A program made the position numbers and the translations under genes. The notes under the pieces are model-generated. The model was not told the origin of the DNA and searched no databases. It worked only from the letters and a program-made list of their open reading frames with translations. Below, piece by piece: positions 7,080-62,690 of a DNA stretch of 64,000 bases. Each line of letters starts with the position of its first letter. The stretch's first letter is position 1. The stretch covers positions 21,696,287-21,760,286 of the forward strand of contig NC_057742.1 of the NCBI RefSeq assembly GCF_004010195.1, given 5' to 3'. Origin of the DNA: Chiloscyllium plagiosum (Eukaryota).

Positions 7080-7239
7080 TGGAGCAGGAGAATCGACCTT
7101 TCGGGCATAAGCCCTTCATCAGGAACTTATGTCCAAAACGTCAATTCTCCTGCTCCTCAAATGCTGCCTGACTTGCTGTGCTTTTCCAACACCACACTCT
7201 CGACTCTGATCTCCAGCATGTGCGGTCCTCACTTTCTGC
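7080..7239. mobile_element. Family A mini-element with 13-bp TSD
   Basis: Flanked by caggacttataca at 7067-7079 and 7240-7252. Hammerhead-like core on the minus strand at 7095-7122. Confidence 0.85.
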
Positions 7240-7534: not shown

Positions 7535-8443
7535 ATTAGCGAGTTTTGAGAAGATTTGTAGCTCAGGTTGAGGTTCTGGATGTAGGTTTGCTTGCTGAAC
7601 TGGAAGGTTCGTTTTCAGATGTTTTGTCACCATACGAGGTAATATCTTCAGTGAGCCTCCAGATGAAGCACTGGTGGTATAGCCTGCTTTCTATTTATGT
7701 GTTTAGGTTTCCTTGGGTTGACGATATAATTTTCTGTGATAATGTCATTTCCTATGGTGATGCCATTTCTTGCTCTTTTTCTCAGGGAGTGGTAAATGTT
7801 GTCCAAGTCAATGTGTTTGTTGATAGAGTTCCGGTTGGAATACCATGCTTCTAGGAATTCGCGTGCATGCCTCTGTTTGGCTTGTCCTAGGATGGATGTG
7901 TTGTTCCAGTCGAAGTGGTGTCCTTCCTCGTCTGTATGTAAGGATACTAGTGATAGTGGGTTATGTCTTTTTGTGGCTAGTTGATGTTCATGTATCCTGT
8001 TCATGGCTAGTTTTCTAGAAAAGAACACGAGCCACCAGGATATATGAACACCAACTAGGCACAAAACAACATGACCCTCTCTCACATACAGATGCAGAAG
8101 GACACCACTTTGACTGGGACAACACATCCATCCTAGGACAAGCCAAACAGAGACATGCACAAGAATTCCTAGAAATATGGAATTCCAACTGGAACTCTAT
8201 AAACAAACACATTGACTTGGATCCCATTTACCACCCACTGAGAAAAAGAACAGGGAAATGGCATTACCACGGGAAATGACATCACCACAGGAACTGATAT
8301 CACTAACTGAAGGAAACCTAAACAAATAAATAGAAAGTGGGCCATACCACCAATGTTTCAGCTGGAGGCTCACTGATGATGTTACCTAATATGGTGACAA
8401 AACATCTGAAAATGAACCTTCCAGCTCAGCGAGCAAGTCTGCA
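7535..8443. mobile_element. Penelope-like (Poseidon-type) element with inverted 3' ends
   Basis: GIY-YIG C-terminal remnant RIHEHQLATKRH...AREFLEAW on both strands (inverted copies). TSD atttccaagg at 7525-7534 and 8444-8453. Confidence 0.88.
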
Positions 8444-13211: not shown

Positions 13212-13415
13212 GGAAGTCAGAAGTCACAGAACACAAGGTTGTAGTCCAACAGGTTTATTTGAAATCACAAGCTTTCAGAGCACTGCTCTTTCATCTTCAC
13301 CTGACAAAGGAGCAGCGCTCCGAATGCTTGTGATTTCAAATCAACCTGTTGGATTATAACCTGATGTCTTGTGACTTCTGACTTTGTCCATCCCAATCCA
13401 ACACTGGCACCTACG
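13212..13415. mobile_element. Palindromic mini-element, family B variant
   Basis: Inverted arms agtcagaagtcac...ccaacaggttt / aacctgttgg...gtgacttctgact around cacctgacaaaggagcagcgctccgaa. Confidence 0.8.
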
Positions 13416-13713
13416 CTCATTGTGTGGGAAAGTGGTGGGAAGTTTTTAGAAAGTTCAGAGATTGAGTATTGATGATAAAAGACACATTTCATTGAAGTTC
13501 TTTGTCTTGCCCTCGTCACAAGAATATAAATTGAAGGCAAAAACCAACATTTATTTTCCACATTAGGAGTACTGATTTGTTGATTGACATGTATTGACAT
13601 GTACAATGCACCATTGATACTGATGAAAGTTAACAGCCACGCTTTGTTTAGAGCCTTGTCCTGAGAAATGAACCCGCAAATGGCTGTCATCTATTTAGTT
13701 GAGTTGAAACAGG

Positions 13714-13919
13714 CAAAGTTAAAAATCACACAACACCAGGTTATAGTCCAACAGGTTTATTTGGAAGCACTAGCTTTTGGAGCACTCCTCTTTCATCAGA
13801 TGACGAAGGAGTGGCATTCCGAAAGCTAGTGCTTCCAAATAAACCTGTTGGACTATACCTGGTGTTGTGTGATTTTTAACTTTGTGCACTCCATTCCAAC
13901 ACCGGCACCTCCAAATCAT
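13714..13919. mobile_element. Palindromic mini-element, family B
   Basis: Near-perfect ~85-bp inverted arms (caaagttaaaaatcacacaacaccagg... / ...cctggtgttgtgtgatttttaactttg) with hammerhead-like cores at the centre. Confidence 0.85.
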
Positions 13920-14344
13920 GACAGTATATACAAATGTTTTTTGCATCTATTAAACAAAGGGCTCTATGTATTTATGTATGTATTTTACAGCAAACACCCA
14001 CATTGTGAATCCGATTGACAATCCTAAAGCAGTGAAATTCCTTACACATTCAGGATGATCTAGAAATTGCTCGTTAGATACAGTCAGCACCTTGCTTGTT
14101 GCCAATGACTGAAGGCCACATTTGCTGCAATTTTTCCTGCCACTGTGCAGACCTCAAAGGACCATGCATGGCAGCGACGTCTGGAACTGGAAGTCAATGT
14201 GACAGCAGGTTAATCATGGAACCTCTAAGCCGCTGCACAGCTTTCTGAAAACATAGGCTGCAGATACATGCTATTTGTTATGATCCACCAATCTTTGGGA
14301 CCTACAGCCTACGTACCTGGCATCACATTGGCACTGGAATTCAT

Positions 14345-14438
14345 TCCTGATGAAGAGCTTTTGCCCGAAACGTCGATTTTCTTGCTCCTCGGATGCTGCC
14401 TGACCTGCTGTGCTTTTCCAGCGCCACTCTGATCTAAT
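14345..14438 (+). mobile_element. ~95-bp family A insertion consisting almost only of the hammerhead plus terminus, 13-bp TSD
   Basis: TSD cactggaattcat at 14332-14344 and 14439-14451. Core ctgatgaagagcttttgcccgaaacgtc at 14347-14374. Confidence 0.85.
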
Positions 14439-19150: not shown

Positions 19151-21416
19151 AGTGTCTTTTTAAACAGACCAACTGCAGTGTGGGGAATTTCCATGAATAA
19201 GTATCCCTTGTTGCTTATGTTAAATGGCTGTTTCGATCAATTGGCTGTTTAAATGGACTTTGTTTCATATGGGATTCGGAAGTTTGGATGAAAGAAATGG
19301 AATTAAAATTCTGGACTCTAAGCAGTTTGGAATTAATCCTTTCAAGAACAAAAAAAAGATTCAATTTAACAAATTAAATTCTGCATTGAATGGCTCAGAA
19401 CAGAAAACATTAAATAGCTTTTACACTGCATTTGGAAATGTCACTGTAATCATATTTTTTTTTTACTCTTGATGTGGACTAAAATGGGAAAAGGATTGTT
19501 TTTCAGTCAAGGATTATGGAAAGAATTGCTGCACTCTTAAATATAAGCTACATTGTGAGATATATTTACACCTTTGTTTTGTAAGCAATAGAAGAAGAGA
19601 GATATGACTCTTGGCATCAGGGTGTACGAGCAGAAAGAGATTCACCCTGTGAGAAATTGCTGATTGGTTTGGGTAATTGTGATCCATTCTGGATGCCCAA
19701 GTCATCAGCCTAATGACGTATCTCCAATTGGTTGCTGGGCGGGTAAATGGTTTGAGAGCTGATGATGGAGGCAGAAAAGCTTCCTGACTGCTGAAAGAGC
19801 AGGTACGGTGGCTTTATCTCTCTACAGTAAACTAACTGAAGCCTGAAGATTTATTTTCTCTCATCAGTTCCTGTAAGCTTTTGTCCTTAGCCAGTAACTA
19901 ACAGTCTTTATAATTAATGGAGCAGTCCCTCTGTGTCTCCTGCAAAAACGTGAAAGAATCTGATAAAGGAGGTTAGGAAACATAATGTCTTCAGAAGCAA
20001 AAGGAACATCTCATCAGTCCTGGCCTATATTTTTCTATTTTTGCCTCCATATATAACACCTTTGGTTTGTTTACCTCCATATTTACATATAGGGGTTTTG
20101 AAGGGTTAGTGTTTCAACTAGCAGAGTTCGGTGTTGACAGTTCATAGTTTAGTTTATCTGTTGCTAGTGCTTGTTTATTTTTAATAAATAGCAATTCTTA
20201 GTAATTACGCTACTGTCAGTGTTCTCAATCATTCTGAGTTCATCTGACAGGTAAATTGTAGCCTTTGCCTACTTTGACTAACAAATAATCAAAACAAATA
20301 AATTTAAAGATTATAAACTTCCTCCTTTGATCAAATACAAAGTTACCAAAAAATAGATTAGGAGCATATTACAGATCAGAAAATGAGGACTAAGAAACTG
20401 ATTTGTTTAGAAATGGAGAATATGAATGTAAATTAGCAAACAATGTGAAAACAGGCTGCAGCTATGTAAAAAGGAGCAGATGAGCCAAGGCAAATGTGGG
20501 TTCAATTCAGGCAAATTCAGAATAATATATACAATGGGAAATAAGGCAATTGCAAAGAAGCTAAATAATTACTTTGTGCCTGCCTTAATGGAAGATGCAA
20601 AAATAAACTTCAGAAATGTTAATCTAAAGGACCAAGTGAGAATAAAGAGTGGGAAGTAATATGATCCGATGGTCCTAATTGCTCTGGGGCAATGAAATTA
20701 TCAAAAAGTCAGATCCACAAGATGGCGGCAGCCAAGCAAGCAGCATTTGGGTGCCTGTGCACTGGCTTGACCTTCTTGTCTGCATTTTTCTTTTTCCCTT
20801 TCTCCTTTTACCCCATTACCCTTGATCTCCATCTATCCATCGCATTCCCAGTTACCTTCCACCCAGTCTCACTCCCCCCTACCCCCTATTTGGGCTTATG
20901 CCTGAAACGCGACTGTTCTACTCCTCAGATGCTGCCTGACCTGCTGTGCTTTTCCAGCGCCATACTCTCAACGCTGATCTCCAGCATCTGTAGTCCTCAC
21001 ATTCTCCCTGCTTCTGCTTTAGTAAAGTATTACTTGGTAGCAAAGAGAGATCTATATAGCCAGGTTCATGTTGAATATCCTTTATTATCATGTACATTCA
21101 GTTTAAAATACAGTGAAAAGTGTGTACTGTCACTTGTACACAGCGCCATTCACAGAATAAATTTTTTTAAAACTTCAGAATTGAGGCCTACCGGTGCTGG
21201 GCCACACCCCCACATATCGCATCTGAGTGACACGCATCGAGTGGGTGTGGAGCTGGGTTAACTGTTTGCACGCCAAGCAACCTTGTTAATGAGAAAACAA
21301 AACTTCACAAGAAACACTCAGATTTTGGAGCTTTTCAGATTTTGAGATTTCAGATAAAAGATTGTCTACCTGTACAACATTTCCATCTCCGCATACTGCC
21401 ACCAGTGTTCCCGCTC

Positions 21417-22335
21417 TGGGCTTTCCAGCCCACGCCAAGCTCCAGAGAGAGTGTCCCGCTCCGGGCTACACCAGCTCAGGCCATGCCGCAGAGACAGTGC
21501 CCTTCTCCAGGCTACACCAGCCCAGGCCATGCCTCAGAGAGAGTGTCCCACTTTGGGCTACACCGGCCCACACAATGTCCCAGAGAGAGTATCCCACTCT
21601 GGGCTACACCAACCCACACCATGCCCCAGAGAGAGTGTCCCACTCTGGCCTGTACCAACCCAGGCCATGCTGCAGAGAGAGTGTTCTTGCTCTGGGCTAC
21701 ACCAGCCCATGCCATGCCACAGAGAGAGAGTATCCCACTCTGGGCTACACCATGCTGCAGAGAGAGTGTTCTCGCTCTTGGCTACACAAGCCCAGGCCAT
21801 GCCGCACAGAAAGAATGTCCCACTCCGGGCTACACCAGCCCATGCCAAGCCGCAGAGAAAGTGCTCTGCCCCTGCCTACACCAGCCTACACCATGCGGGA
21901 GAGAGTGTGTCCCACTGTGGGCTACACCAGCCCATGCCATGCTGCAGAGACAGTGTCCTGCTCTGGGCTACACCAGTCCAGGCCATGCCCCAGTGAGAGT
22001 GTCCTGCTCTAGGCTACAGCAGCTCAGGTGATGCCGCAGAGAGAGTGTCCCTGCTCTGGGCTACACTAGCCCAGGCCATGCCCCAGTGAGCGTCTGCTCT
22101 GGCCTACACCAGCCCACACAATGCCACAGACAGGGTCTGCTCTGACCTACACCAGCCCATGCCATGCCACAGAGAGTGTCCCACTTCGGCCAACACCAGC
22201 CCACACCATGATGCAGACAGGGTGTCCCACTCCAGGCTACACCAGCCCACACCATGCCACAGAGACTGTCCCGTCCTGCTCCGGCCTACACCAGCCCACA
22301 CCAAGCTGCAGACAGTGTGTCCCACTCCGGCCTAA
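21417..22335. repeat. GC-rich 46-bp minisatellite, about 20 copies
   Basis: Unit ~gggctacaccagcccatgccatgccgcagagagagtgtcccactct; starts at 21463, 21509, 21555, 21601 and onward. Confidence 0.95.
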
Positions 22336-23124: not shown

Positions 23125-23745
23125 CTCCACATCCCTCCCATTTATCTCTCAGTCCACTTGGGCCACCCACTCATTCCTGATGAAGAGTTTATGCTCAAAA
23201 CATCAACTCTCCTGACCAGCTGTGCTTTTCTAGCACCACAATCTTCAAATTTGATCTCCAGCACATGCAGTCCTCACTTTCTGCTAGTTGATGATAACCT
23301 TCCTGCGAATCCTCTTCCAAGGATGCCTACCTTGAAGAATTTCTATGCCTCCTTCTACAAGGATCTCAGTGAGTCTCTCTCTCACTGCACCCATCAGGTC
23401 ATCTCCTCTGTTCTGAAGCTCTTCAGCCTCATCTCCCCTCCCCTCAACTTATCCCAGATCCAAACTTCCAACTCAGCACTGCCCTCTTGAACTATCCTGT
23501 CCATCTTCCTTCCCACCTATTCGCTCCACCTCCTCTCCGATCTATCATCTTCACCCCGACCTTCATCTACCTATGCATTTCTAGCTACCTTCCTCCCAGA
23601 CCCAACCCCCTCCCATTTATCTCTCAGCCACCTTGGGCCACCTTTTCATTCCTGATGAAGAGCCTATGTTTGAAACATCGACTGTCCTGCTCCTCGCATG
23701 CTGCCTGATCGGCTGTGCTTTTCCAGCACCTCACTCTTTGACTCT
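23125..23745 (+). mobile_element. Penelope family A tandem terminal repeats (pLTR-like)
   Basis: Two copies of ctcccatttatctctcag...cattcctgatgaagag...gaaacatc...tgtgcttttc at about 23135 and 23610. Confidence 0.75.
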
Positions 23746-24866: not shown

Positions 24867-25082
24867 TCACTACCAAAATCCAAGAAGCTAGCAACTCCTT
24901 GGGCATTCACAATGCATGTGAAAAATTGGATAAGAAGAAATTCATGAGCAATTGTGACTCCGATGATGCTCCATTATATATATCTATAATAGAATTAATA
25001 ATCAAACTATGTCATCTTGAGATCAATCTTTTATGCCATGGTGCACTAACGGGAATGTTGCAAGAAACCTTCATTTCTTCTT

Positions 25083-25258
25083 GATTTGGAGGTGCTGGTG
25101 TTGGACTGGGGTGTACAAAGTTAAAAATCACACAATACCAGGTCATGGTCCAACAGGTATATACTCCACAACCACCCTATGAAGGGGCAGTGCTCCGAAA
25201 GCTAGTGCTTCCAAATAAACCTGTTGGATGATAACCTGGTGTTGTGTGATTTTTAACT
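25083..25258. mobile_element. Palindromic mini-element, family B
   Basis: gttaaaaatcacacaataccagg ... cctggtgttgtgtgatttttaac. Confidence 0.8.
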
Positions 25259-28299: not shown

Positions 28300-28403
28300 G
28301 TCTTATAATCCACATCCACCTGATGAAGGAACAGTGATCTGAAAGCTAGTGCTTCCAAATAAACCTGTTGAACTATAACCTGCTGTTGTGAGATTTTTAA
28401 CTT
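28300..28403 (+). mobile_element. Family B element, single arm with hammerhead core
   Basis: cacctgatgaaggaacagtgatctgaaagctagtgcttccaaataaacctgttg. Confidence 0.8.
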
Positions 28404-45600: not shown

Positions 45601-48600
45601 CAGAGCAAATTTGAAGAGGTGAATGGCCTATTCCTTGTTTGTATTACATATTACATTTTTCAATTTTTTACAAAAGTTGTTTCTGAAATGAAAATTCACT
45701 CATGAACAATAACATGGGTTTTCTCACAAATGTTTCACTTACTATGCTGATTGATGAGCATTCTGATGGAAATACGACTCATGTAAAAGCGATCCAGAAA
45801 GTACTGTACATTTTGACTAGTGATGCTATCTTCTAAGTATGATTCCTTGTACTCAATAACACCTTGTGCCATTGTTGGAACAACATCATTATGCCTATTC
45901 CGAATTGTAATTAAGGCATCTGTAAAACTAAGATCGTGCAAAAAAAAAACAAGCCTTTTAGATATAGCACATATGAAAGCTTTATACATTGTTAGATTAG
46001 ACTGATTTTATATCCAATCTTTCTACAGAAAGATTTAATAAACTAATGCAAGTGGTTGGCCCTTGATATTAGGCTTCCAGAATCAAATGTGAAAGACTAA
46101 TATTAAAACACCTTAAAAAAATCGTCTAAAGAATTTAGTGATATTTTCTTCCTCAAATTGCCCTTACAGTCAGATCCCAAATGATATCAATAGTGAAGTT
46201 GATAAGCATTGAAATGCACAAATATGCTGTAGTAAACAAAAAGCACAAAAGTTTTTTCTCTTGTAATCAATAGTGAAAGTGACAATTCACATTTCAATGC
46301 CTTGGGCTCCTGCAAGCTCACAGAAGATTATTGGTGACAAAAATGAATTGAAGACCTTTAAAAAGGTATTGGTTCATAAACAGCCTTAAATTACCTGGAA
46401 TCATAGGTGGTGCATTGGTGATTAGCATTGCTGCCTTACAGCACAAAAGATCCAGGTTCGAATCCAGCCTCGGGCAATTGTCTGTTATGGAGTTTGCACA
46501 TTCTCTCAGTCTGTGTGGGCTCCTTGACTTTCCTCCCATATTCCAAAGATGTGCAGGTAGATTGATAGTGTACAGGGATGTACAGTTCAGGTGGATGAGG
46601 CATGTCAAATGCAGGATTAGAGATAGGGTCAGGGGCTAGGGCAGGTTGGGAAGATCTTTGGTGGGCCATTGATTCGAAGATTACCTTAAATTGATCTTGC
46701 TGTCAATTTCACGTTAACTTAACATATTTCAAAATGCTACCTCAAAGACAAAAATTGTAATGACAACCTGCAGTTGTTAACAGGGTTTTTATTTTACAAA
46801 TCAGTGAATACACTTTCGAAAGGTCGACCATACAAGACACCAATAAGCTGACTTTTTTGGCAAGTGTTAGATGAAGTCACCATTTAGCAACCATGCTTCT
46901 GTGTCAAAAGGTCCAGGTTCACTAATCACTCTGGAACATGACGGCTTTAAAGATGTGTTTATAATGCAGAAATCCTTCCCAATGTACTATACTGACTGCC
47001 ATTGGCAAGAAAGAGATTGCTGGTAAAGAACTCAACAAAAAGAACAGTTGAATATTCTGTCAAAACTCAATAAGTAAATAACAATACTACAGTAAGTTGC
47101 AAATTATTTAATATTTTAAAAGCATACCTTGATAAAACTCGCAGATCATCAGGGTTCTTGTCATAAAACTCAAGAATATCCAAAAGACTTTGAACATACC
47201 TAAATGAAAAGAGAGTTAGCATGTATGAAGCTTCATTTATCACAATGTACAAAACTCATGGATCAATAAAAGCAGTTAAGCAATTTAAGAATTAAAAAGT
47301 ACATTGGTCATATCTAAATCAATTAAAACATGTTTGTGAGAGTGCTCTGCTGAAAAGACGCATTTAGGGTAGCTTCATGGAGTTCAGAGGGCTCAGTGTT
47401 TAAAGAAGGTTTTAGACCAGAAGATCAAGAGGTTTGAGATTTTGAATGTTTAACTGAGGCAGTTTCACTGATTGCAACTACACTATTGTGCAAGTACATT
47501 TGGTTTTATTTGCTTCATTAAACAAATTTGCCAAGTTTTCTTAAAACTGTCAATTGCTAATCTTCAACATTACTGTAGCTACCCTTATTTGCAACATTTG
47601 TCTCAACAAAATCATCTGACAAAACTCTAGTCAGAGAACTGCCTTGACCAGAACAAATAATTAGTTCATTGAGTTCAAGCTCCATGTAAAACACAATGCT
47701 TTTCAAATAGTTAAAATCATCCAAAACAAATTCTTTAAAAGGAGTGACGTTATTCATTTGACTTCAAATTTTCAATTTTAATTTAAATGTTTTCCCTTAT
47801 TTTTAGTAGGGAGTGGCAACCCTCCAAATACTAGCAACATCAGAATGCTATTGTACTGTTGACTTCACACCAAACCCAATCATAATTCAGGATCAATGTC
47901 CTTACATTTGCGCAATGTATAGTGATCAAGCACAAACAGTATCTAATCTTTATTCTTGTTAGATTAGGCATAGCGAGCAATAATAGCACTTCAACATTTT
48001 TCCAGCAAAAATCAACTAGCTCAGCGCAAACTGCTGACTTGAACTGGAAACTTCCAGACCTGTTAATTCAGTTGCACATTAGTTTTTCATCAGTTTACAT
48101 GGTTAGAACATACACAATACTGCAAGAAGGCTCTGTATGGTTCAGATTCAATGGTACCCTATTTAATTATACTTGACTGATTGGTGCCTAATGCAATGTA
48201 AGCACTTGTATTCTAAAAAAGCTCCAAGATTTTACACCATTCAACATTAGTTTCCAACACTGATTTTTTTTTAAATGAATGCTGTTCCTAAAAGCTAAAT
48301 AACTTGGAAAATCTTGATATATCTATCCTTAACAATAACTGTAATATTTAAGAAAATAGACTTGGGGGCAAGTCAATTAGTTTACTAGCATTTGTAAGCT
48401 CTCATATAAACTCACTTATTATATCTTGATAATTTGGCAACCAACTCAAGACAGCCATACTGGTGTATGAAGATGACACTAGTACATGCCCACATTGGAA
48501 ATTAAAATTAATTGTGCATACAGAATTTAGAGAATGTCATGGAAATAAATACTAAATACAAAGCAAAAATGTTCACATTCAGAATTTCTTAGCCAGTCTG

Positions 48601-51600
48601 TACACAAAGCCAGATTTACAAAGTAGACCCAATACGGCCTCTTTCTGCTTAAGACATACTTTAAATTCAACTTTCAGATGGAAAACAGTACTTCACCCTT
48701 CCAGCCTCTTTTATAAAGTTCAACTGTCTGAGTGACACTACAGTCTAGAAAGTTCAGGCGTCAAAGCAGGAAATACGAAACTACTTACTACTCTCTCACT
48801 TCCTCACAAAGCATTAATAAAATTGAATTGAGGTTTAGTGACTGAAAATTAACACTGTTTTGAGTTCTAGGGATACAGAATTCACTTCAGGAGACTGTAG
48901 GACACAATGAATTTAACATTCAAAACTGTAATGCTTCTCAGGAATGTTTTTCTGTACCAAAACAGACTGTAATTGTGGAATTATGTCTATCAAACTATAA
49001 TGAAACAATGGCAATCAAATTTGTCAGTAATTTAATGATAGTGAGTGGATTAATAGGCTCTCACATTTCACTATGCATAAGACATATTGCACTGGCTTTT
49101 ACAATCAAGAAAGGCATAATCCAAATATGAGAAGGTATTTATATAAATAAGAGCTGAAAATGTGTTGCTGGAAAAGCGCAGCAGATCAGGCAGCATCCAA
49201 GGAACAGGAGAATCGACGTTTCGGGCATAAGCCTGAAGAAGGGCTTATGCCTGAAACGTCGATTCTCCTGTTCCTTGGATGCTGCCTGACCTGCTGTGCT
49301 TTTCCAGCAACACATTTTCAGCTCTGATCTCCAGCATCTGCAGCCCTCACTTTCCCATTTATATAAATAAGTCTCATAACTTAAGTGGGGGAAAGTTCAC
49401 AGTATAGTTTACACAGTTCCAGTTGGATAACTGTCAGATAATTGAAACAGGATACATCAGCTTATATAGGTCAACTCATATCATGACCAAACATATTTAA
49501 CCAGATGGCCAGTTTTAGTAACACCCTTCTAATATTGTCACAAGCATAAAGCTAGCATCACTGAGGTGGATGGAAAACATTTCAATATTGCACAATATTA
49601 TTTGTCCTGCATTGAAAATTTACTGCTTTGAAGAAGCCACACATAAGAGACACATTATTCGAGGAGATTCTCTCACTTGTATGACCATCTTTTGTGTGGC
49701 TACTCACCAGCTTTGGACTAACTGAACGGAAGGTGTGCCAAGTAGCCGGTCTGGGAGGAGATTGATTTCCTTCATAATATTAGAGAGTCTCACAGGCAGC
49801 TCTTGCCTCAGAAACATAAAGGAGGTCTTCTCACAGGCATTTGTTGAGCCTAAGTGGATAAGAATGCAACACTGTACTTAAATGCCAAGTTTCAACAACT
49901 TCCACCCAATTTTATTCCCTTCCAAAAATAATAAGAATTATGCTACAACTCAGTTCCATTGTGCTTGCAACTCATAATAACATGCCTGATGCATGCAATT
50001 TAATGTTGTCCTCACTTGATGTCCAAACACACACTGGAGGCTATGATTTATTTGCTGTTACGTTTGCTTAATTCTGTTTTCTGTCCTCATACTTTTACTC
50101 CAACTCTTGTCCACGCATGGAGCTGGTTTGATGGCATGAAGCATCAGCACATGATTTAATTTGGGAATACGGCAAATTAAATTCCACTCTTGAATCCCAA
50201 GGGCATGTGATGCAGGAAATCTCAAGTATCAAATGCACACTGGTATGTACACAGTTTGAGTAGGAAAACTCAAGCTATCGGTATTTAGTGTCCTGGGTCA
50301 GAAACACGCAAGATTCTACATAATACTTCTTGCTTTGAGTTTGATGTCAATGATGTCATAGAAAAAGGACACATCTCCCAGAGAGGGAGAAACTGATTAT
50401 AACTAAGACCATCTCCTGGGAATGTAGCTGATCTTCCTTAATAAATATTTATATATGTGTGTATGTGATGAAGTTAAGTATGCATACTTCATATTGGGGA
50501 AAAAAATCTGTGTATTGCTTATTGGGAAAATTGCAATTTTTGGAACAGTTGTAAGGGCAGATTCTGAAAGAAATGTCAAACTGGTAGCCGCTATAATCAC
50601 AGAAACAAGTTTGCTCACAGTTAACGAAGAAGTTATACTTCCTCTTACCCAGTGTGCTTTTGCAAGCCTGATTAACCAAATTATAGCTAATTCTCCATGT
50701 TAATATCAATATTAAACGGAAAGATCTATGTACCCAGTAAAAGGTTTCTGCAAACTAAAGAGGCATGGGTCTGGAAGCTCCTTTCCCTCCCTTTACCATA
50801 GTTAGATGAATTAATATTCAATAATCAAATAAGATTTTTTGACAGCTTTGAGTGATTGAATAACAGATAGAGGGCAGTTGAGGCTCAACGACCATAAACT
50901 AAAAAGAAACAGTGTGTTTCAAAATCCCAATTAAAATCCAATGACCTTATGGCAGGAGATGGCTATGTGATCTCTTCTACATTTACAATGGTATTTACAT
51001 AATACCACATACAACAACTTTCATTTACGTCATCTAAACATCCCAAAAACATTCCACAGTACCCAAATAATTAGTACAAAGCGCTGTGCTGCAGGAAACA
51101 GCAGAGGTTTGCAGGAGGAAAATTCAAACAAAACAACAGCTAAAGCATCATCAACTTGTGGAGGAATGAAAACCATGCTGTGGCGAATGGTCCCATCCTG
51201 GATAGATCAATGACTATCTCGCATAGGTGACAAGAGATAATTACTACTGCAACTTGGTAAATCAATTCCGTCAATGTCATCATCACCTGAATCAAATCTC
51301 TGTTCCTTGTGTATTCTTTGTTCTTGAACGAACTGTGTTTCTATTTTCAGCTGCTTTCTAGTTAAAACTACACAACTGTTGAGAATGCAATGTATTTAAT
51401 GTACCATTGCGGTTCATAGAAAACGCTGGGAAAATGTTTCTTATTTTCTGAAAGTAAGGTTCAATGGACTTAGAATGATAGGTTAGATGTTTAAGATTGA
51501 GACGAGGACAAATTCCATTCAGTGGATTATGAATCTTGGAAATTCTATACCTTTGTATTAGTATATTCAAGAAGAAAAATAAAATTAACAGATTTTTCAA

Positions 51601-54600
51601 TACTGAAGGAATCTATGGATATGGAGAAAGCACACAACAGATTCATGGAGAAAGTTTAGGCCCTGGAATAAAAGGGACAGTGGTAATGTGCATACAAAAC
51701 TAGCTGAATGATAGGAAAGAGAGAGTTATGATGATACATTAAACATATTGAGTTGTTTACCTTGGAGACAGGAGGGCTAAGAGATATTCAAAATGATCAG
51801 TGGGTTGGATAGAGTGGATAGCATGAAGCTCGTAGAAGGTGTAAGAATGAGAGGGTATAGATTTAAAGCAATTTGTAAAAGAAGCATATGTGGTAAGGGA
51901 ATAAAACTTTCTACACAATGAGTAGCTAGGATATGGAACCAGGGTGTAAGTTTGCTCGCTGAGCTGGTAGATTTATTCTCAGATGTTTCGTCACCATGCA
52001 ATCTAATCATGCTGGATCCAAAACACCCCATTTCTATGGATTACCAAAAGGTACATAAACAAGTGGCTCCCCCTTAGACCCATTGTCTCACTTCCTGGTA
52101 CACCGACATACAGACTGGCAAAGGAACTGCAACTCATACAAACAAACAACTCATAGAAGACCCAAGCCACTCCATCTGCTCCACCCAGAAATTCCTTAAC
52201 AAAGACACCAATGTAGAGGATGACGAGGTCATAGTTTCCTTCAACGTGACGGCCCTATTCACATCAATAAATATCACCCCAGCCAAATAAACACTGGCTT
52301 CACTGCTAGACGAATCAAGGTTACAAATGCCTGACAGCACCAACTTCATCAGCAAGGATAGCATCCTCAAACTAGTAGACTTGTGCCTCACAACCTACTT
52401 CACCTTCACCAACAAAATCTCAAACAAATCAATGGGATGTCTATGGGATGCCAATATCAGAACTCTCAGCAGAAGTAGTTATGCAGAAGTTAGAACAAAC
52501 AGCTCTTCCCATGATCCAGCCCAAGCTTTGGGTCCACTATGTGGATGACATCTTTATCATCACAAAATGCAAAAAATTCAAAGAAACCCACATATCCATA
52601 AACAACATCTTTACTGCTATAAAGCTCACCAAAGAAAGACGACAAGAACAATAACACACTCTCCTTCCTAAAAGGTCACAATAGAATGAAGAGCCAATGG
52701 AGAACTGCAGATCAGCGTCTACAGGAAAGTCTCACACACTGACCAGATACTTAACTACATGTGCAATCATCCCAACACCCACAAACGAGGATGCATCAGG
52801 ACATTATTTAAATGGGCCACAACACACTGCAGCACCAAGGAGTTTGAGAAGCCAAGGAAAAACACCGACAACATATTAAGGAACAATGGGTACCCAATCG
52901 CAGTCCACAGATTCCTACACAATAGACCTCAACAACAAGACACAACATGCTCAGAAGCTCTTAGCTATCCTGCCACACATTCAACACATCACTGAGATGA
53001 CAATCATACTACTCTGGCCCCTTGGCATCATGGTAGCTCACACACCTACCACCAAGCTGAAAGAGTTCCTGATGAATTTAAAGAACCCTGTACCAGAACA
53101 AACATCATATAAAAAAATACCCTGCAAGGACTGCAACAAACATTACATTGGACAGACAGGCAGGAAACTAGTCACTAGAATACATGAGCACCACCAAAAG
53201 ACAAGGCCAACTATCACTAATATCCATACACACAGACAAAGAGGGAAACCAGGTTGACTGGGACAATAGATCCATCCTGGGACATGCTAAACAAAGACAC
53301 ATACAAGAATTCCCAGAGGCCTGGCATTCAAACGGGAACTCCATTAACATATCAATTTGGACCCCATTTACTAACCTCTCAGAAAAAGAATCAGGTATGA
53401 TCATCACCCACCACAACAGACCAAGACACACAAATAACAAGCACGGTAGAATACCAGCATTCATTGGAGGCTCACTGATGAGGTTACCGAGCATGGTGAT
53501 GAAATGTCTGAGAACAAATCTACCAGCTCAGCAAGCAAACTTACAACCTGATCCACAATCTGAGCTACAAACCTCTAAAATCACAAAATGTATTGCCTCA
53601 AAGTGCGGTAGAGGCAGGTTCAACTGAAACGTTTAAGAGGGCATTAGATGATTATTTGGAGAGAAATAAATTGCAAGGCTATGGGAGGCAAAGCAGGACA
53701 CCGGTACGAGGTAATGATGCTAATTTGAAGAGCTGGTGCAGGTATGTTGGGCTGCTTGGTCTCCTTTTGTATAGTAACACTTCTGGGATTCTGTGAAGTG
53801 CAACAGAATGTAAAAATGTGGCTTGACCAAACATTTATGTTAGAAGGTAGCAAGGGAAAATGAAGGTAAATCCATATTTTAAAAGGAAACATTTACAGGG
53901 CTATAACAGGGGTACAAATGAGAGGGAACAGCAGAACAAACAATGCTGAATTCTTCACATCTATCATCCTATGAATTTAACCTATCTCCATTCATTGTAT
54001 TGAGTTAGAAGCCACCTTAGGCAATTATGTCTTAAAAGATGTTAATCAAATTTAATTAACTTCCACTAGAACATCTTTTTAAAAAAGAAACTGCTCAAAC
54101 ATGATGTGACACATCTCTGGGATTGGAGAGACCCATCCCAGTTTTTTTTAAGATTAGATTACATTACATTACAGTGTGGAAACAGGCCCTTGGGCCCAAG
54201 TCCACACCGACCCGCCGAAGTGCAACCCACCCATAGCCCTACATTTACCCCTTACCTAACACTACGGGCAATTTAGCATGGCCAATTCACCTGACCTGCA
54301 CATCTTTGGACTGTGGGAAGAAACCGGAGCACCCGGAGGAAACCCACGCAGACACGGGGAGAACGTGCAAACTCCACACAGTCAGTCGCCTGAGGCGGGA
54401 ATTGAACCCGGGTCTCCGGGTTCTTCTGGCTCAACCACAGGGCACGTTACCATTACACCAAAACATCCTGATTGGAAAATAAATACCAGCATTAAGCATG
54501 CAAAGTCAGCTAATCAGGACCAGTCTGTCCTGAATGTTTGAATTTCTTGACTTTTAGCAATCTTAGAGATGCGCCAACCTTTGGCGCAAGTTTTTCAGGA

Positions 54601-59839: not shown

Positions 59840-62690
59840 TTGTTAGGGCTTGGATGGAGAGGAATTTGTTACGTTTTTGCAAGAAAATGTTCTTATTAGT
59901 ATGTGGATATACATACTGGAGAAGGTATAAAACATGACCTACTCTTGGGAAATACGGCATGGTAGGTGACCAAGCTATTAATAGGGCAAGTGATCATAAT
60001 TCTAGTAGTTTTAAAATAGTGATGGAAAAGAATAGACAGGATCTAAAATTTGAAGGTATAAACTGGAGGAAGGCCAATTTTGATTGTATTAAGCAAGAAC
60101 TTTCAAAAGTTGATTGGGGGCAGATGTTCATAGGTAAAGGTGCAGCCAGAAAATCGAAAGCTTTCAAAAATGAGACAAGAGTCCAGAGACAATATTTTTC
60201 TGTTAGAGTGAAGGGCAAGGCTGATAGGTGTGAGGAATGCCGGATGACAAGAGAAATTGAGTTTTTGGTTAAGATAAGAAGGAAGCATATGTCAGGTATT
60301 GACAGCAGAGTTCAAGTGAATCCCTCAAAGAGTATAAAGGCAATTGTTATATACTTAGGAGGGAAATCAGAAGGGCAAAAAGGGGGCATGAGTTAGCTTT
60401 GGCAAATAGAATTAAGGAGAATCCAAAGGATGTTACAAATACATTAAGAATAAAAGGCTAACTCGGGAGAGAATAGGGCCCCTTAATGATCAGCAAGACC
60501 ACCTATATGTGGAACCGCAGGAGATCGAGGAGATACTAAATAAGTATTTTGCATCAGTGTTTATTATGGAGAAGGATATGGAAGCTAGAGAACTGAGTGG
60601 GAAAATAAATAGCGACATCTTGAAAAATGTCCATAGTACAGAGGAAGTGGTGCTGGATGCATCAGGGTGGATAAATCCCTTGGACTTGATCAGGTATAAG
60701 CTGAAAAATGTGTTGCTGGAAAAGCGCAGCAGGTCAGGCAGCATCCAAGGAGCAGGAGGAAATGAGGAAGCTGGAGAAATCTGCATTCATCCCTTGTGAT
60801 TAGAGGGTTCCTAAGCGGAAGATGAGGCGCTCTTCCTCCAGGCGTCGTGTTGCCATGGTCTGGCAATGGAGGAGGCCAAGGACCTGCAAGTCCTTGGCAG
60901 AGTGGGAGGGGGAGTTAAAGTGTTCCGCCACGGGGTGGTTGGGTTGGTTGGTGCGGGTCACCATCACCTTAACCTCCTTCCACCTATCGCATTCCCAACG
61001 CTCCTCCCCCACGTCCCTTCTCCCTACCTTTTATCTTAGCCTGCTTGGCACACCTTCCTCATTCCTGAAGAAGGGCTTATGCCCGAAACATTGATTCTCC
61101 TGCTCCTTGGATGCTGCCTGACCTGCTGCGCTTTTCCAGCAACACATTTTTCAGCTCTGATCTCCAGCATTTGCAGTCCTCACTTTCTCCTACTTGATCA
61201 GGTGTACCCTAGAATTCTGTAGGAAGCTAGGGAAGTGATTGCTGGGCCCCTTGTTGAGATATTTATATCATCGATAGCCGCAGGTGAGGTGCTGGAAAAC
61301 TGGATGTTGGCTAACATGGTGTCGCTATTTAAGAAAGGTGTAAGGAAAAGCCAGGGTACTATAGACCGGTGAGCCTGGCATCAGTGTTAGGCAAGTTGTT
61401 GGAGGGAATCCTGAGGGACAGGGCTTACATGTATATGGAAAGGCAAGGACTGATTAGGGATAGTCAATGTAGCTTTGTGTCTGGGAAATTGTGTTTCACT
61501 AACTGGATTGAGTTTTTTGAAGAAGTAACAAAGAGGATTGGTGAGGGTAGAGCGGTGAATGTGATCTATATTGACTTCAGTAAGGCAATCAACAAGATTC
61601 ATCATGGTAGACAGGTTAGCAAGATTAGATCTCGTGGAATACAGAGAGTACTGGTTCAAAGGTAGCAGACAGAGGATGGTGGTGGTGGGTTTCTTTTCAG
61701 ACTGGAGACCTGTGATCAGTGGTATGCCACAAGGATCACTGCCAGAGCCACTCCTTTTCATCATTAATATAAATGATTTGGATGTCAACCTAGGAGATAT
61801 GGTTAGTAAGTTTGCAGATGACGCCAAATTGGAGCTAAACTGGACAGCAAAGAAGGTTACCTCAGAGTACACCAGAATCTTGATCATATGGGGCAATGGG
61901 CTGATGAATAGCAGATGAAGTTTAATTTAGATAAATGATAGGTGCTGCATTTTGCAAAGACAAATTAGAAGTAATATCCTTAATGGTAAGGTCCTGGGAG
62001 TGTTGCTGAACAGAGACATTGGAGTGCAGGTTCATAGCTCCTTGAAAGTGGAGGCGCAGGCAGTTAGAATAGTAGAGAAAACATTTGGTATGCTTGCCTG
62101 TATTTGTCAGTGCATTGAGTATAGGAGTTGAGAGGTCATGTTGCAACTGTACAGGATATTCGTTAGGCCATTATTGGAACACTGTGTGCAATTCTGGTCT
62201 CCCTGCTTTAGAAAGGGTGTTGTGAAACTTAAAAGAGTTCAGAAAAGACTTACAAGGATGTTTCCAGGGTTGGAGGGTTTGAGCTATAGGGAGAGGCTGA
62301 ATAGACTGGGGCTATTTTCCCTGGAGTGTCGGAGGCTGAGGAGTGACCTTATATAAAATCATGGGAGGCATGGATAGGGTAAATAGACATCTTTTTCCCG
62401 GGGTGGGGGAGTCCAAAACTAGAGAGCATAGTTTTAACGTGAGAGTGGAAAGACTTAAAAGGGATCTAAGGGGCAACTTTTTCACACAGAGGGTTGTGCA
62501 TGTATGGAATGAGTTGCCAGAGGAAGTGGTGGAGACATTTAAAAGACATCTGAATGGGTATATGAATAAGAAGAGTTTAGAGGGATGTGGGCCAAATGCT
62601 GGCAAATGGGACTAGATTCATTTGGGATATCTTATTGATATGGACACGTTGGACCAAAGAGTATGTTTCTGTGCTGTATATCTCTATGAA
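59840..62690 (+). mobile_element. CR1 LINE ORF2 remnant (endonuclease C-terminus through RT to 3' tail)
   Basis: SDHNS, NWRKANF, LNKYFASVF, GYYRPVSLASV, DFSKA, GMPQGS, FADDAKL, RPLLEHCVQFWSP. Confidence 0.93.
60696..61191. mobile_element. Neptune-type Penelope fragment with family A inverted termini, 12-bp TSD
   Basis: Minus ORF HPVAEHFNSPSH...LEEERLIFRLGTL. TSD acttgatcaggt at 60684-60695 and 61192-61203. Hammerhead core at 61065-61092. Confidence 0.88.

Follow-up and report, generated by a model that had tools for sequence, protein, structure and literature searches.

A palindromic pair of Penelope-like element ends in intron 2 of a PDK2-like gene of Chiloscyllium plagiosum, probably assembled anew at insertion

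Intron 2 of a pyruvate dehydrogenase kinase gene of Chiloscyllium plagiosum carries a short palindrome, with a hammerhead motif and its own flanking direct repeats, and its presence raises the question of whether such a structure belongs to a separate mobile family, copied from a palindromic master, or is built at each insertion from the end of a larger retroelement. The window analysed here, to which all coordinates refer, is a stretch of 64,000 nucleotides. The insert is 205 bp long (49152–49356) and lies between exact 15-bp direct repeats, the left and right copies of the target-site duplication (TSD; 49137–49151 and 49357–49371). It is composed of two head-to-head copies of a Neptune-like Penelope pLTR, for which parent positions are counted from the A of ATTCC (+1). 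The inverted, tail-less arm (49152–49233, minus strand) corresponds to approximately +14 to +95 and contains helix II to GAAACGUC without the CUGAAGA sequence; the direct arm (49232–49323, plus strand) corresponds to +4 to +95, and the two are joined by a 2-bp CC/GG microhomology (49232–49233). Only the direct arm continues into an unpaired 3' extension of 33 bp (49324–49356, plus strand; parent +96 to approximately +129), which is the PLE "tail" as defined in PMC8557442 and in the accessible part of PMC11167929. The paired arms (49152–49233 and 49242–49323) are 82 bp each, with 3 mismatches and a loop of 8 nt; the repeat search reports them as 87 nt at 95% identity, a figure that includes a chance extension. 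The predicted RNA fold has an energy of −175.5 kcal/mol (z −24.4), and none of 200 shuffled sequences was equally stable. The insert has no coding remnant: in copies that extend beyond the tail a long ORF begins, its ATG approximately 38 nt past the tail. All of this bears out the first-pass annotation, which had described an insert of about 205 bp made solely of Penelope termini, with near-perfect inverted arms of about 80 bp, no coding remnant and a clean target duplication of about 15 bp. At the tail end (49350–49356, and likewise at locus L158) it was observed that many inserts finish in TTTCCC, although TTTCTCC is read where the same insertion holds an internal copy of the template; this difference hints at a one-base slip while priming at the tail.

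An empty site in a related species, which the first-pass annotation had asked for, was found when four DNA runs were aligned over 48700–49800. In organism B, the related species, contigs from two studies (X13 and X9) pass from 49136 directly to 49357; single contigs span 48819–49136 or 48700–49136 and then resume at 49357 with no gap, and the 15-bp repeat is present there as a single copy. These contigs lack exactly 220 bp, that is, the insert plus one repeat, and therefore the TSD is genuine. In two other samples of organism A the flank contigs run into the element, on both sides in X3 and on the right side in X5. Most simply, the insertion postdates the split between organisms A and B. The PDK2-intron insert is thus a real and recent insertion of the ribozyme-bearing end, and of this end only, of a Penelope-like element. 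The target site (49137–49151) is AT-rich and includes a 12-bp palindrome, in agreement with the reported AT preference of PLE endonucleases.

The location within intron 2 of PDK2, as originally proposed, agrees with the splice sites, an RNA contig and the identity of exon 2. Judging from peptide motifs, the minus strand encodes a pyruvate dehydrogenase kinase, with exon 2 at 49849–49708 and exon 3 beginning at 47199. The RNA contig joins both exons and skips 2,508 bases (47200–49707, minus strand), which constitute intron 2, and the insert lies 336 bp from the exon 2 donor. Exon 2 scores best with PDK2 (75.3 bits), by a thin margin over PDK1 (73.3), and then with PDK3 (63.4) and PDK4 (58.4). 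The pre-mRNA corresponds to the minus strand, so that it carries the half motif only, the full hammerhead core lying in antisense orientation. For this strand of the insert the predicted fold is −162 kcal/mol, in line with the long hairpin that had been anticipated in the PDK2 pre-mRNA; according to this prediction, the insert would form an 82-bp hairpin within the pre-mRNA that would be removed by splicing.

The hammerhead motif itself is only partly complete. On the plus strand, the core CUGAAGA (49233–49239), helix II (49241–49252), GAAA (49253–49256) and the cleavage C (49260) are present; following the motif definition in the accessible part of PMC4209133, positions 49233–49260 hold a minimal type I hammerhead motif, with the conserved core, a 4-bp helix II and a palindromic ACGU at the helix III positions in place of helix III. 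To call this a full core, as in the first-pass annotation, says too much: the arm junction leaves helix I with 1 bp, where minimal PLE hammerheads have 4–5 bp, and helix II closes with a G-U pair. The minus strand holds helix II to GAAACGUC only, just as the first reading of the sequence had it. Furthermore, the motif is buried in the hairpin, and forcing it open has a predicted cost of approximately 27 kcal/mol. Since the core is antisense, helix I has a single pair, helix II closes with G-U and opening is this costly, self-cleavage of the PDK2 transcript is not expected from the predicted folds. An Rfam scan of the window matched no hammerhead family. The same scan gave eight weak matches, all below the gathering scores and mostly microRNA models placed on hairpins, and these were discarded as microRNA candidates.

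The parent of the insert can be recognized at locus L187, where the pLTR is directly downstream of an ORF that includes a reverse transcriptase (RT), a C-x4-C-x2-C linker and a GIY-YIG-type motif. The RT match to PF00078 has an E-value of 1.8e-6 and 28.2 bits, slightly below the cut-off of 29.6. The linker, CX4CxxC, fits the CX2-5CxxC pattern in one broken copy that has a stop inside the motif; according to PMC8557442, this linker before GIY-YIG marks Neptune and Nematis and is absent in Penelope/Poseidon. Judging from these motifs, the parent appears to be a Neptune-like EN+ PLE, although the linker also fits Nematis. Mobilisation in trans by a Neptune-type RT, as first suggested, agrees with a PLE ORF with a linker of the Neptune/Nematis type. 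No intact full-length PLE ORF was present among 20 stretches fetched, many of them broken by N gaps, and Pfam gave no match for the 47-residue linker piece or the 52-residue endonuclease C-terminus. In tandem copies the ORF start comes after the tail. In the genome, an exact 30-mer over the ribozyme has 29,143 matches, and the pLTR upstream of the ribozyme, searched with a different pattern, has 10,104.

The window holds approximately 12 pieces of the parent repeat. A sister insertion of the same young subfamily (60699–61191) has the same tail-less left boundary and a 15-bp TSD with 1 mismatch; the boundary is followed by an inverted piece of the endonuclease C-terminus (60759–60960, the same as in the parent ORF) and then by the pLTR and tail. 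The first-pass annotation had also noted two similar tiny inserts, both of which belong to the older CUGAUGA subfamily. The one at 7080–7239 is indeed a hairpin, with an inverted arm of approximately 45 bp, a direct arm with the tail and a 13-bp TSD; the one at 14345–14438 (plus strand) also has a 13-bp TSD, but it is a single tail-less unit that starts at +1/+2 and is not palindromic. Several other arrangements were observed. A partial tandem of the older subfamily (23132–23745) consists of a pLTR, the tail, the 5' end of the ORF and a second pLTR, and the script found no TSD around it. Outside the window, tandem units at L158, L164, L174, L176 and L177 comprise the tail and 100–400 bases of the ORF 5' end before a jump back to approximately ATTCC, as if the template had been switched at the RNA 5' end to an ORF-containing RNA. 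Within the window, pieces of a different Penelope-like family (7552–8436 and 52880–53627) have a GIY-YIG-type C-terminus and hammerhead-like cores with a longer helix II at 7651, 8373 and 53475; a third repeat has a hammerhead-like core at 28320, inverted copies near 13214–13921 and a further piece at 25079–25258. A degenerate tandem array (21404–22334; units of approximately 46 and 92 bp) retains long open frames on the plus strand, and a near-perfect tandem duplication of 154 bp (98.7%) was seen at 723–1032.

The hairpin in the PDK2 intron is a known kind of element. An inverted pLTR, an optional tail of 30–40 bp and a TSD are the standard architecture of PLEs (PMC8557442; PMC3846280 in its accessible part), and the features described for EN+ PLE insertions were found here: a pLTR after an ORF with RT and with GIY-YIG at its C-terminus, a tail, and an adjacent inverted and 5'-truncated copy with a TSD. 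The inverted-pLTR EN+ PLEs of Arkhipova et al. 2013 (PMC3846280) and Craig et al. 2021 (PMC8557442) share the head-to-head pLTRs, the tail at one end, the TSD and the palindrome at the junction; in the present case, in contrast, the insert consists of the two arms alone (approximately 205 bp) and exists in at least 12,993 copies with a measurable spectrum of junctions. The minimal PLE hammerheads described in the accessible part of PMC4209133 have the same type I core, the extra base before helix II and the palindromic 15.2–16.2 positions, and they are likewise mostly dispersed single motifs, with close opposite-strand pairs noted in that study; the PDK2 insert differs in that it lacks helix I, has G-U for the conserved G10.1-C11.1 and holds only half of a second motif. 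For PAc, a Poseidon element of Anolis, Frangieh et al. 2024 (PMC11167929, accessible part) reported in vitro two internal RT start sites that bracket the tail, cutting and extension of both target strands, and insertion with no need for ribozyme cleavage. The start sites and the use of both strands resemble what is described below, whereas the clade is different and the PAc start sites lie within the ORF, instead of upstream of the ATG as they do here. Non-LTR retrozymes, according to the accessible text of bioRxiv 10.64898/2026.07.22.740005, in which the word "shark" does not occur, are also protein-free, derived from pLTRs and provided with type I hammerheads; however, they are head-to-tail tandems with at least two complete ribozymes, and the PDK2 insert is a single head-to-head pair with one incomplete motif.

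A MITE has fixed symmetrical termini and a short transposase-generated TSD of fixed length, while the ends of the hairpins are asymmetric and their TSDs range from 10 to 19 bp. In the twin priming of L1, the two target 3' ends each prime a cDNA, and joining of these cDNAs at a microhomology creates an inversion within the TSD; there each cDNA is copied from a different portion of the RNA, whereas here both would copy the same portion and yield a palindrome. Our literature search, to which subscription journals and Repbase were outside the scope, found no description of a shark-type hairpin population, of twin priming by PLEs or of a PLE strong-stop cDNA, and the formation of inverted PLE ends is called undefined in PMC8557442. 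The present analysis contributes an empty site, tests of lineage and a bias in the side of the tail.

The end points of the insertions across the genome are far from random. Of the first 78 matches to the ribozyme 30-mer, 70 were scored; the remaining eight are arms of hairpins, and three pairs among the 70 are the two arms of one insert. The samples comprise the first matches along a single chromosome, and searching by exact match is biased towards young copies. The 5' limit falls between −3 and +4 in 49 of these 70 core-bearing copies, with a peak at +1/+2, and the other 21 extend further upstream; 49/70 is a conservative figure, since the eight omitted matches are mostly arms of hairpins already represented. 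At the 3' end, 37 of the 70 finish at +85–105, 29 at the tail and 4 elsewhere. An inverted partner is present in 28 of the 70, and 25 are single short units. A single limit at the 5' end and a pair of limits at the 3' end are what would be expected of an RNA that starts at an initiator-like site, together with two internal RT start sites. The term initiator-like refers to the likeness of ATTCC to the initiator consensus; by eye, no fit to a Drosophila-type downstream promoter element was seen at the right distance. The first-pass annotation had offered repeated truncation and inversion of full elements as its fallback, and this is closer to what was found, except that the ends are not random but concentrated at one 5' and two 3' sites.

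The palindromic pattern detects at least 12,993 hairpins in the genome, a lower bound that comes from exact matching. The exact junction 26-mer of the PDK2 insert occurs 1,198 times, and never in a reversed control. Among the first 50 hairpins there are 35 junction strings in 27 classes, of which that of the PDK2 insert is the commonest (9/50), and in only one of the 50 does the longer arm extend past −1. The side on which the tail is found was informative. Of the first 50 copies with the junction of the PDK2 insert, 42 have the tail on the arm that is shorter at its 5' end, 6 have it on the longer arm and 2 have no tail (binomial p 1e-7). Six copies of the older subfamily show the same preference, 5 to 1 for the shorter arm; over all junction classes the bias is weaker, 31 to 18 among 50, and about even in some classes. 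The PDK2 insert is of the minority type, with its tail on the longer arm. Since a simple fold-back would always leave the tail with whichever arm extends furthest 5', the majority copies need two separately primed antisense strands.

From these observations we consider it likely that the insert was assembled in one event from two short cDNAs and not from a palindromic master, and this is, with good confidence, the best explanation of the data. The template RNA would start at approximately ATTCC (+1), the initiator-like site three bases ahead of the hammerhead core, and the endonuclease of the element would nick both target strands approximately 15 bp apart. Each target 3' end would then prime RT at an internal start, either at +129, which includes the tail, or at +95, which does not, and both cDNAs would run off the nearby 5' end of the RNA, probably of one RNA molecule. 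The 3' ends of the cDNAs would anneal at a microhomology of 1–3 bp (here GG with CC) and be filled in, and the resulting hairpin would have a single tail and be flanked by a TSD. It may be that the shorter, tail-less cDNA usually finishes first and anneals to, or invades, the other one. The product is probably a dead end, because its ribozyme motif is without helix I, locked in a duplex and antisense to PDK2. The +1 start is read from the insertion ends only, the RNA runs having no pile-up of starts or ends, and a 2-bp microhomology would not, by its length alone, explain why a single class accounts for 9 of the 50 hairpins, which counts against this explanation. Taken separately, the two-cDNA route is given somewhat better than an even chance.

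A different route to the same structure is a single cDNA, primed at the tail, that reaches the 5' end of the RNA and snaps back, or an antisense template that primes itself, which the accessible part of PMC3846280 proposes for the rotifer Penelope. This would account exactly for the PDK2 insert, whose tail and loop belong to one and the same arm, so that by itself this copy fits two-cDNA joining or plain snap-back alike; it would also account for the 14 rare variants that are private to one copy and occur in both of its arms. Nevertheless, snap-back cannot place the tail on the loop-less arm, and this is where 42 of the 48 tailed same-junction copies have it. They could be explained only if a free hairpin with two tails were trimmed at +95 on either strand, and we regard this route as unlikely.

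It has also to be considered whether the unit from +1 to +129 is a SINE-like source with an internal promoter, which is re-transcribed and provides most of the templates, the hairpins being a by-product. The single short units among the core-bearing copies (25/70) speak for this, as does the internal TATA-less promoter of the Drosophila Penelope (PMC2377424, accessible part). However, the tandem units capture the authentic 5' end of the ORF behind the tail, which argues that an mRNA of the autonomous type is the template at least often. Such a source seems improbable, and it is compatible with the joining step of the two-cDNA explanation.

The first-pass annotation proposed a retrozyme- or MITE-like family of non-autonomous elements, and its check was to collect copies from the whole genome and compare their junctions. 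On this reading, a hairpin master would be transcribed and re-inserted whole by the PLE enzyme. An identical junction does recur (the 1,198 copies), lengths cluster near 205 bp, a TSD of at least 10 bp is present in 43 of 48 scored copies (10–19 bp, mostly 13–17), and non-autonomous derivatives of PLEs exist (PMC8557442; the accessible text of bioRxiv 10.64898/2026.07.22.740005). Yet the copies do not form a lineage, as the diversity of junction strings already indicated. The same junction is found in the TTAT, CTAAT, CTCAT and CUGAUGA subfamilies and on many haplotypes, and the same geometry also occurs with other loop variants. In their subfamily mix the same-junction copies match 41 copies that are not hairpins (chi-square p 0.57), and in the sample of 50 the junction class is spread at random over the subfamily clades. 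In the older CUGAUGA subfamily, 45 of 855 cores (5.3%) have this junction versus 1,198 of 29,143 (4.1%), an approximate comparison given that the patterns are unequal in length, and six older-subfamily copies with the same junction carry arms of the old type. Within the first 50 same-junction copies, scorable subfamily sites have the same state in both arms in 34/35, 33/35 and 30/30 cases, where shuffling gives means of 27.0, 21.9 and 18.8 (p 1e-4, with unscorable arms left out), although this agreement could be partly due to later gene conversion. Among the 50, the position of the end without the tail ranges between +27 and +105. There was no sign of shared transduced flanks; only two pairs of flanks matched, at 85–88% identity, and these look like unrelated repeats rather than transduction. 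The notion that an identical junction means a true family was therefore rejected, on the basis of the subfamily spread, the covariation of the arms, the tail on either arm and the TSDs that each copy owns; with neither a tandem array nor a short TSD of the transposase type, a palindromic family is very improbable. The recurrent junction is a preferred microhomology near the 5' end of the RNA and not a pedigree, and each hairpin probably arose afresh when it was inserted, without a mobile family of its own from which it was copied. The identity of the insert as a Neptune-like pLTR, together with its de novo formation, is held with high confidence.

RNA data were considered as well. In run X21, all 1,225 reads were on the repeat and 98% continued into other loci. 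Among these poly(A) single-cell reads and contigs, none from X21 was on the unique flanks of the insert and none from X22 aligned, and the reads, which derive from other copies of the repeat, show no pile-up of starts or ends at 49260 or 49232. The A>G and T>C differences in X21 were rejected as candidates for editing, as they mirror subfamily variants of the genomic copies. In the accessible part of PMC5625713, a palindromic 200-bp repeat is reported as the most edited family in a frog, and Penelope as heavily edited in a lizard; by analogy, A-to-I editing of the PDK2-intron hairpin is plausible.

At the PDK2 locus itself the insert, being lineage-specific and spliced out, is probably neutral. 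Its relevance lies in the thousands of young copies whose ends, junctions and tail sides can be counted, and which provide a direct test of snap-back versus two-cDNA joining; this test could also be run in the existing in vitro PLE system. We tentatively propose, with slightly less than even confidence, that the hairpins are fossil products of two strong-stop cDNAs made from one RNA with both nicks priming, and that these more than 13,000 near-perfect hairpins of 80–95 bp, many of them presumably intronic, might represent the principal substrate of ADAR in this lineage.
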